From IMG/VR virus record IMGVR_UViG_2718218360_000013: a stretch of DNA of 40,343 nucleotides, one strand, 5' to 3'. This document shows positions 1,791 to 2,124 of this stretch, one piece after another. Position 1 is the first letter of the stretch. Each line of letters starts with the position of its first letter. The position numbers were made by a program, and so were the translations under genes. The DNA is from a virus. Its lineage: Duplodnaviria; Heunggongvirae; Uroviricota; Caudoviricetes. Below the pieces are notes generated by a model. That model ran no database searches and was not told the origin of the DNA. It saw only the letters and a program-made list of their open reading frames with translations.

Positions 1791-1973
1791 TCAGAGCGGG
1801 GTCGGGTCGTTTGGGGATGACGGTGCCTGTGCTGTTTTACTGAGTTTTTCAGCTGCCGCATCATCAATTTTACGGCGAATATAATTTCTGATGACCTTAT
1901 AACCACCGCTCACCAGATATAACGCACTGACCACAGCGCAGAAATAAAGCAGCATTGTATGAACGAATGTCAT
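1791..1973 (-). CDS. Hypothetical small single-pass membrane protein (60 aa)
   Basis: N-terminal hydrophobic helix MLLYFCAVVSALYLVSGGY followed by a basic stretch; AAGGTAAGG SD-like sequence upstream of the ATG. Confidence 0.4.
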   Translation of the reverse strand: MTFVHTMLLYFCAVVSALYLVSGGYKVIRNYIRRKIDDAAAEKLSKTAQAPSSPNDPTPL

Positions 1974-2041
1974 ATAACCTTACCTTTGATATTGACTACA
2001 TAATTCGTTATCGGGTAAAAACATCGAAGCGACTGATAACC

Positions 2042-2066
2042 ACTCCTTCGGGAGTATTTTTATTTT
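2042..2066 (+). terminator. Plus-strand-oriented terminator-like hairpin (ACTCC-TTCG-GGAGT followed by ATTTTTATTTT)
   Basis: Short stem with TTCG tetraloop followed by a T-run on the plus strand; orientation is opposite to the surrounding genes. Confidence 0.4.
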
Positions 2067-2085
2067 CCTTTATGGGTTAGGTAGC

Positions 2086-2124
2086 TCCCGCCAGCCATAT
2101 CATGACCGGCGGGATTTTTTTATT
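2086..2124 (+). terminator. Plus-strand-oriented terminator-like hairpin (TCCCGCC, 15-nt loop, GGCGGGA, then TTTTTTTATT), overlapping the esterase stop codon
   Basis: 7-bp GC-rich stem followed by a T-run on the plus strand. Confidence 0.45.

Follow-up and report, generated by a model that had tools for sequence, protein, structure and literature searches.

The gap between the esterase gene and the DUF1378 gene in the Mu-like prophage Sp18 of E. coli O157:H7 probably holds a self-contained, independently transcribed small RNA gene on the plus strand, whose product associates with Hfq and which sits as an antisense "moron" inside a late-operon cassette. The plus-strand promoter/terminator element in this gap is the Sp18 copy of the sRNA candidate EcOnc37, which has already been catalogued, and it is no novel type of system. 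Dozens of Hfq-binding sRNAs that rewire host regulation are encoded in EHEC and EPEC prophages, among them AgvB, AsxR, Esr41, StxS, HnrS, and the Pas RNAs, and EcOnc37 is one of the listed candidates. Here we propose ends and a promoter for EcOnc37, and we find that an antisense sRNA slot is conserved upstream of every DUF1378 gene sampled. We also present evidence that this slot is kin to the one that PasC and EcOnc52 occupy at the 3' end of NanS-p-type esterase genes, and that the whole cassette has moved between phage types with its sRNA. These results can be used in annotating the late regions of Stx phages and in choosing sRNAs for functional work.

Gene layout of the Sp18 locus

Sequence identity assigns the window (the whole stretch of 40,343 nt that was analyzed) to Sp18. 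Positions 1400-2400 are 100% identical to at least 151 complete E. coli genomes, among them that of strain Sakai (NC_002695.2), in which this stretch carries the annotation "prophage Sp18, Mu-like phage" and the three cassette genes are ECs4993 to ECs4995 (Table 1). The window copy is inserted at ureC and Sakai Sp18 at sorM, while EcOnc37 of Sakai and the window locus show no difference in sequence. The gap between the esterase and DUF1378 genes spans 1974-2119, and its length of 146 nt agrees with that given in the initial annotation of this DNA. The DUF1378 gene follows the esterase gene in an operon-like array. DUF1378 corresponds to PHROG 494, a family of unknown function, and is essentially confined to the late regions of E. 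coli phages.

Table 1. Features of the Sp18 locus, in window coordinates.
Feature	Position	Strand	Basis
mom	1-738	-	ORF/Pfam
com	692-937	-	ORF/Pfam
DUF826 gene (ECs4995), 81 aa, third cassette gene	1510-1755	-	Pfam PF05696
DUF1378 gene (ECs4994), 60 aa, one N-terminal hydrophobic helix	1791-1973	-	Pfam PF07125, E = 1.2e-38
-35-like hexamer TTGACT	1992-1997	+	Sequence; TTGAC conserved across modules
-10-like hexamer TAAAAA, 18-nt spacer from -35	2016-2021	+	Sequence; conserved spacing
Predicted primary sRNA, ~94 nt	2028-2121	+	Start from promoter geometry; 3' end from one CLASH read
5' stem-loop ACUCC-UUCG-GGAGU (2042-2055), then U-rich tract ATTTTTATTTT	2042-2066	+	Terminator scan, folding
Hfq-CRAC peak EcOnc37 (Sakai NC_002695.1 5077340-5077410, minus strand)	2060-2130	+	PMC4104026, coordinates mapped here
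Single-stranded linker CCUUUAUGGGUUAGGUAGC, ~20 nt, likely seed	2067-2085	+	In all three EcOnc37 CLASH chimeras seen
Intrinsic terminator, GC-rich hairpin then T7 (2115-2121)	2086-2124	+	Sequence, folding, pattern count
SASA/DUF6645 carbohydrate esterase gene (NanS-p-like; ECs4993), 679 aa, convergent with sRNA	2120-4159	-	Pfam
gin-type invertase gene	4259-4819	-	ORF/Pfam

Promoter, hairpins, and predicted transcript

The promoter-like sequence TTGACT-N18-TAAAAA that had been reported on the plus strand at 1992-2021 is present there. The pattern TTGACN{18,19}TARAA matches once in the 40-kb window, at this site, with 0.29 matches expected. A promoter scan made no call at the two hexamers, of which the -10 is non-consensus and lacks the final T. 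Transcription from this putative sigma-70-type promoter would start near 2028 and yield the predicted primary transcript of Table 1.

Both hairpin-plus-T-run elements reported for the gap are likewise present, and the folding calculation that the initial annotation proposed gives a hairpin on the plus strand in each case. Hairpin 1 (-6.6 kcal/mol) has 5 bp, a UUCG loop, and a U5AU4 tail; it passes the minimal criteria of the terminator scan but is weak. Together with its U-tract, it may act as a weak or leaky terminator, as a structural module, or as a U-rich linker that binds Hfq. Hairpin 2 (-14.7 kcal/mol, z = -3.35) pairs T2086-C2092 with G2108-A2114 in a 7-bp GC stem that is directly followed by U7, as in an intrinsic terminator, and its T7 overlaps the esterase stop codon at 2120-2122. 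Its loop exceeds 8 nt, and a simple terminator scan therefore did not detect it. The pattern GGCGG-N1-2-TTTTTT matches once in the 40-kb window, at hairpin 2, with 0.16 matches expected. At this locus, a single-stranded U-rich/seed region leads into the intrinsic terminator and its 3' U-tail, which is the arrangement looked for in Hfq-dependent trans-acting sRNAs.

The initial annotation held that these elements make sense only for transcription of the plus strand. This is correct for the T-runs but not for hairpin 2, which is more stable on the minus strand (-23.2 kcal/mol, z = -6.07, a 13-bp stem with no U-tail) since two A.C mismatches turn into G.U pairs there. From its 5' end, the plus-strand RNA would consist of a small stem-loop, a single-stranded U/C-rich stretch that includes a conserved AUGGGU-type motif, and the GC-rich terminator. 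Since the sRNA gene lies antisense inside the cassette, its terminators would work only on the plus strand, where they would stop the sRNA alone and leave read-through of the late or cassette mRNA into DUF1378 unhindered. Read along the mRNA strand, this DNA is an A-run and then a hairpin, so that no termination would be expected.

Service of the plus-strand terminators to the plus-strand ORF at 1007-1471 was considered and rejected. That ORF has its own hairpin at 1481-1500, is more than 500 nt away, and has two convergent genes between it and the terminators.

Hfq and RNase E crosslinking of EcOnc37

Hfq has been UV-crosslinked to RNA in strain Sakai (Hfq-CRAC; Tree et al. 2014, Mol Cell, PMC4104026), and Table S2 of that study lists EcOnc37 in Sp18 at 5077340-5077410 on the minus strand, with a predicted Rho-independent terminator and detection in 5/5 Hfq-CRAC data sets. 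The entry is a peak only, without ends, promoter, Northern blot, or function, and its cells for Northern blot and for the hfq deletion are blank (PMC4104026). Using the sequences of CLASH reads, we mapped these coordinates to the window (window position = 5079470 minus the NC_002695.1 coordinate), and the element described here proved to have the same sequence and the same strand as the published peak. In Table S1B, ECs4993...ECs4994 is the 57th-ranked Hfq-bound intergenic region, with 15921/5032/11303/91585/2303 reads on one strand versus 0/0/1/187/0 on the other (PMC4104026). By these counts, the window plus strand accounts for more than 99% of Hfq-bound reads in the gap. The "sense" reads of the table were taken as Sakai minus strand, which is window plus strand, by comparison with the rows for micA and sroC and the orientations of these two genes.

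RNase E-CLASH produced chimeric reads labelled EcOnc37, which fill about 20 rows of Table EV7 (Waters et al. 2016, PMC5286369). These reads match the window plus strand, TTTATGGGTTAGGTAGCTCCCGCCAGCCA corresponding to 2069-2097 and TTTTCCTTTATGGGTTAGGTAGCTCCCGCCAGCCATATC to 2063-2101, and together they carry the plus-strand sequence of 2063-2118. One read carries ATGACCGGCGGGATTT and ends in the U-run, which supports the 3' end of the sRNA. A plus-strand RNA that covers at least 2063-2118 and ends in the U-run after hairpin 2 is present in lysogens, where it is bound by Hfq and RNase E. A short antisense RNA to the sequence preceding the membrane-protein gene had been predicted from the DNA, and according to the published CRAC and CLASH data it exists. 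Since the CRAC peak and the CLASH fragments begin at about 2060-2063 and not at the predicted start at 2028, mature EcOnc37 may be a processed RNA of about 60 nt, or it may be started elsewhere than at 2028.

The mRNA strand is represented in the CLASH data as well. An intramolecular hybrid joins both arms of hairpin 2 on that strand, which indicates that the esterase message runs through hairpin 2 to at least window position 2073. RNA of the mRNA strand over 2073-2150 exists in vivo, and both strands of the gap are present among the RNase E-bound RNA. A full-text literature search found EcOnc37, ECs4993, and ECs4994 mentioned in the text of no paper, and the homologous modules of Sakai Sp5 and Sp15 are missing from the EcOnc list.

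Conservation of the module upstream of DUF1378

A blastn search with the gap against phages and E. coli genomes returned near-identical Mu-type copies, one P2-type copy at 71.5%, and only a few partial hits. Because so few divergent copies were obtained in this way, the diversity of the locus was reached through the DUF1378 protein. With an alignment of that protein, 80 loci were fetched from IMG/VR, and their upstream regions were taken in the orientation of the sRNA. The module was present upstream of every DUF1378 gene sampled, in 33 distinct promoter-to-terminator versions that fall into about ten very different sequence families.

The body of the module is 73-104 nt long, and the sequences of body and spacer vary widely, with a mean column identity of 43%. 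Conservation is confined to blocks, namely the two promoter hexamers, the CU-rich/AUGGG-type linker, the core of the terminator, and the T-run. TTGAC is kept in all modules except one, which has TTAAC, and TA[A/G]AA[N] follows at a spacing of 17-18 nt in 33/33 despite the differing spacers. With few exceptions among the 33, the distance between the -35 and the DUF1378 ATG is 21 nt. At the other end, a core CCGCC/GGCGG stem and a run of T6-T9 are kept in every version, and this run abuts the stop codon of the upstream gene, which is mostly an esterase gene. Hairpin 1 is less constant in sequence: in one variant, two changes shift the register of its stem and the hairpin is kept, and in other families a different small hairpin takes its place.

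When the modules were compared by anchoring them at the T-run, the inner stem pairs of the terminator varied yet stayed paired (C-G, T-A, A-T, and T.G), although this was an informal test. Loop indels misalign the inner stem in a MAFFT alignment of 20 modules, so that RNAalifold recovered just 5 invariant pairs from it and no formal covariation. A test of which strand the wobble pairs favor was ambiguous; Mu-type copies favor the mRNA strand, whereas three lambdoid versions favor the sRNA strand (U.G). Scans against Rfam, at gathering thresholds over the whole window and at E <= 10 over 900-2600, found no sRNA or antitoxin family at the locus and gave chance-level matches only.

Relation to the Pas RNAs and other prophage sRNAs

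PasA and PasC have been mapped in EPEC E2348/69, where they were validated by Northern blot and found to be Hfq-dependent, and EcOnc51 and EcOnc52 were named as their EHEC homologues (Pearl Mizrahi et al. 2021, PMC8550237). Both adjoin a sialic-acid esterase gene and a holin/lysozyme operon (Zhu, Shabalina and Storz 2026 preprint). A distance of 2 nt separates the end of PasC (1290909 to 1290832) from the esterase stop codon; the terminators of the second unit of PP2 and of EcOnc52 (Sakai Sp4) likewise abut the esterase stop, and PasA lies one unit further out. PasA, PasC, and their EHEC homologues thus resemble the window module in being Hfq-associated antisense sRNA genes between a SASA (NanS-p-type) esterase gene and lysis genes, in the same esterase/late-lysis slot and, in PasC and EcOnc52, with the terminator next to the esterase stop.

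The likeness extends to parts of the sequence. Alignment shows a shared promoter block, (T)ATnTTGAC...AAAA with T.TC in the spacer, and TTGAC is invariant in the PasA, PasC, and EcOnc52 modules too. With PasC, EcOnc52, and PP2 unit 2, the window module also shares a GC-rich terminator and a T7-AT run directly next to the esterase stop. In contrast, the body and seed of the Pas modules are unrelated to those of EcOnc37, their 5' part is different, and they have no AUGGGU linker. Blastn with the window gap reaches neither PasA nor PasC, and only the promoter block and the terminator/T-run align. The Pas loci also differ in having no DUF1378 gene and in belonging to lambdoid, not Mu-like, prophages. 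We therefore rejected EcOnc37 as a sequence homologue of PasA/PasC since the RNA bodies are unrelated; it is best regarded as a further sRNA in the conserved antisense slot found at the 3' ends of NanS-p-type esterase genes.

AgvB, AsxR, and HnrS (EcOnc10-12) of EHEC lambdoid prophages are, like EcOnc37, short Hfq-binding "moron" sRNAs. Each has a promoter and an intrinsic terminator of its own, lies in the late region, and is expressed in lysogens. They differ in sequence and occupy another slot, either 3' of the PR'/stx moron site or in the late genes, and the Rfam models of AgvB and AsxR do not match at the window locus.

Seed and targets in trans

The linker at 2067-2085, just upstream of the terminator, is likely the seed of EcOnc37, with AUGGGUUAGGUAG as the candidate seed stretch. 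Its motif, CC(U/A)UAUGGGUU / CUCCAU(R)GG, is conserved across the module families. Fragments of the ibpA 5'UTR, gadA/B, and tktB are the CLASH partners of EcOnc37, and the linker is complementary, as judged by eye, to the ibpA 5'UTR fragment CUACCUGACC. The hybrids are few, with counts of 1-4, and the partners are abundant mRNAs. These few hybrids suggest that EcOnc37 probably base-pairs in trans with host mRNAs through its linker; bound to Hfq and RNase E in lysogens, as the published crosslinking shows, the RNA would then act on its targets by this pairing. A search for duplexes between the linker and the 215 translation-initiation regions of the window gave a best energy of -25.9 kcal/mol, which was equalled by 5% of shuffled seeds and is not significant.

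Alternative explanations

The initial annotation was reminded of type I toxin-antitoxin loci, in which case DUF1378 would be a membrane toxin and the plus-strand RNA a cis-antisense antitoxin pairing with the leader of its mRNA. The layout is indeed similar to that of tisB/istR-1, zorO/orzO, and shoB/ohsC, each with a small hydrophobic ORF and an opposed sRNA gene complementary to the upstream region. DUF1378 has 60 aa and one hydrophobic helix, the sRNA gene lies head-to-head with it, the fixed distance between sRNA promoter and DUF1378 ATG holds in nearly all 33 modules, and the mRNA-strand RNA over 2073-2150 means that a duplex could form. Type I antitoxins such as IstR-1 with tisB and OrzO with zorO can pair far upstream of the ribosome-binding site of the toxin. 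The sRNA covers neither the Shine-Dalgarno sequence nor the AUG of DUF1378, which argues against such a role. What sets the window locus apart from those systems is that no promoter of its own was found for the putative toxin and that the partners occur separately. A sigma-70-like sense promoter is lacking within 300 nt upstream of DUF1378 in 42/43 variants, by strict criteria that would also miss weak promoters, and DUF1378 therefore looks co-transcribed with the esterase gene. All 33 DUF1378 gaps have the module, but elsewhere there are exceptions both ways: the sRNA modules of PasC, EcOnc52, and PP2 occur without DUF1378, and a DUF1378 gene of Pantoea overlaps the last part of a holin-endolysin lysis cassette, leaving neither a gap nor an sRNA slot. 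A scan of one genome per bacterial species gave no confirmed DUF1378 homologue, and the gene is present in only 15/72,556 plasmids. Its setting is a phage late/lysis operon, and its product looks like a late-operon or lysis-associated membrane protein. Given also that no Rfam antitoxin family matches and that the RNA is Hfq-bound and forms hybrids in trans with unrelated mRNAs, the analogy is not supported and we consider a toxin-antitoxin pair very unlikely here.

An effect in cis could take other forms. Full complementarity between the sRNA and the intercistronic RNA makes a secondary effect on the esterase-DUF1378 transcript possible, and the RNA might regulate this convergent mRNA by duplex formation and RNase III cleavage, by transcriptional interference, or by uncoupling the esterase from DUF1378/DUF826 in lysogens. 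The complementarity is perfect over about 94 nt and includes the esterase stop codon, both strands are found in RNase E-bound RNA in vivo, and the module is always placed in the esterase/DUF1378 intercistronic gap. However, modules of the Pas type are still present at loci that lack the downstream genes, and Hfq binding and the chimeras in trans suggest a trans role, so that we regard regulation in cis as possible but on the unlikely side; it would be compatible with an sRNA acting in trans, as a second role. A more specific combination, in which EcOnc37 both regulates mRNAs of host stress and metabolism in trans with the help of Hfq and gates DUF1378 as a lysis-associated membrane protein, is suggested by the promoter locked 21 nt from the DUF1378 start and by the body lying antisense to the esterase-DUF1378 junction. 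We think this distinctly unlikely; if true, the dual-function RNA would be a safety catch resembling type I toxin-antitoxin systems, in a cassette mobile among lambdoid, Mu-like, and P2-like phages.

The hairpins could instead act on the minus-strand mRNA, hairpin 2 by stabilizing the 3' end of the esterase message or directing its processing and hairpin 1 as an intercistronic structure, with the plus-strand T-runs and promoter-like site being incidental. The alternative in the initial annotation that these are mRNA-stabilizing hairpins may hold in part for hairpin 2, whose 13-bp stem on the mRNA strand is far more stable than its plus-strand counterpart and whose arms on that strand were recovered as the intramolecular CLASH hybrid. 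As an account of the whole element, it is extremely improbable. Both T-run and promoter are conserved in all 33 modules, lambdoid versions show the opposite wobble bias or none, and the minus strand has no U-tail after either hairpin. The near-exclusive plus-strand origin of the Hfq-bound reads also argues against it, and the published CRAC and CLASH data already largely indicate a discrete plus-strand RNA.

History of the cassette

The esterase-DUF1378-DUF826 cassette is foreign to Mu and has its usual place in the late operon of lambdoid (Stx) phages, whereas in Sp18 it is transplanted between gin and com/mom. The order esterase (yjhS/nanS-p)-DUF1378-DUF826-holin is also that of the late operon of Stx2a phages. 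The C-terminal end of the esterase has 84% DNA identity to the yjhS/nanS-p gene of Stx phages. A P2-like prophage also has the esterase-DUF1378 pair, and a second, divergent Mu-like prophage has all three genes of the cassette, which is evidence that the cassette and its sRNA have moved into Mu-like and P2-like prophages.

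Distribution of the esterase-DUF1378 cassette and its sRNA module

The esterase-DUF1378 cassette was found together with the antisense sRNA module in three phage types, based on loci from E. coli JNEC-KY174 (L007), strain 600029 (L008), and Stx2 phages (L003 and L012). The sites occupied are lambdoid late operons, the interval between gin and com/mom in Mu-like prophages, and a position adjoining tail and baseplate genes in a P2-like prophage. Since all three phage types carry both elements, the cassette and sRNA module appear to be mobile as one unit.

Plasmid pPAT9B01 of Pantoea sp. 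At-9b (L096 881-2743) encodes a distant homologue of DUF1378, with 40% identity. Its gene closes a Q-holin-endolysin-spanin-like cassette and begins within the gene before it, an arrangement that hints at an accessory role in lysis for DUF1378 proteins.

Hairpins and transcript ends

The EcOnc37 terminator, hairpin 2, contains two internal mismatches on the + strand (2093/2107 and 2095/2105). Both are A.C, so in the mRNA each of them is a G.U pair, and the hairpin there has 13 contiguous pairs (-23.2 kcal/mol). Its two arms, on the mRNA strand, are also joined in an RNase E-CLASH hybrid. This G.U pairing and the arm hybrid suggest that hairpin 2 may serve both transcripts.

In EPEC E2348/69 prophage PP2, a second promoter-to-terminator unit lies between PasA and the esterase stop. 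This unit is nearly identical to EcOnc52 of Sakai and corresponds to where the 236-nt "minor" form of PasA ends; it may be an sRNA gene of its own.

The esterase-DUF1378-DUF826 transcript may end ahead of com/mom, at a strong terminator-like hairpin on the - strand. This hairpin falls within the annotated + strand ORF ECs4996 (1007-1471), which makes the long form of that ORF doubtful. The ECs4996 ORF is convergent with the DUF826 gene, and its last 55 aa contain two zinc-ribbon-like CPAC motifs, preceded by an internal AAGGAG-ATG.

Coordinates of additional features
Feature	Coordinates	Strand	Description
ECs4996 ORF	window 1007-1471	+	annotated 154 aa; PHROG 26524
Hairpin CCGGCAGG-GAAA-CCTGCCGG	window 1481-1500		between convergent stop codons of ECs4996 ORF and DUF826
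Terminator-like hairpin	window 1164-1193	-	13 bp, then T-rich tail
Second PP2 unit	L005 2352-2478	-	promoter to terminator
5_ureB_sRNA match	window 39915-40193		inside urease coding sequence

Prophage insertion site

The Mu-like prophage is inserted in the urease cluster, and sequence comparison showed that window 39142-40343 is 100% identical to STEC genomes in ureC and the gene for the urease beta subunit. The sole Rfam match at gathering score was to 5_ureB_sRNA, the family of a Helicobacter RNA that is antisense to ureB; this probably reflects similarity of the urease coding sequence rather than an sRNA.
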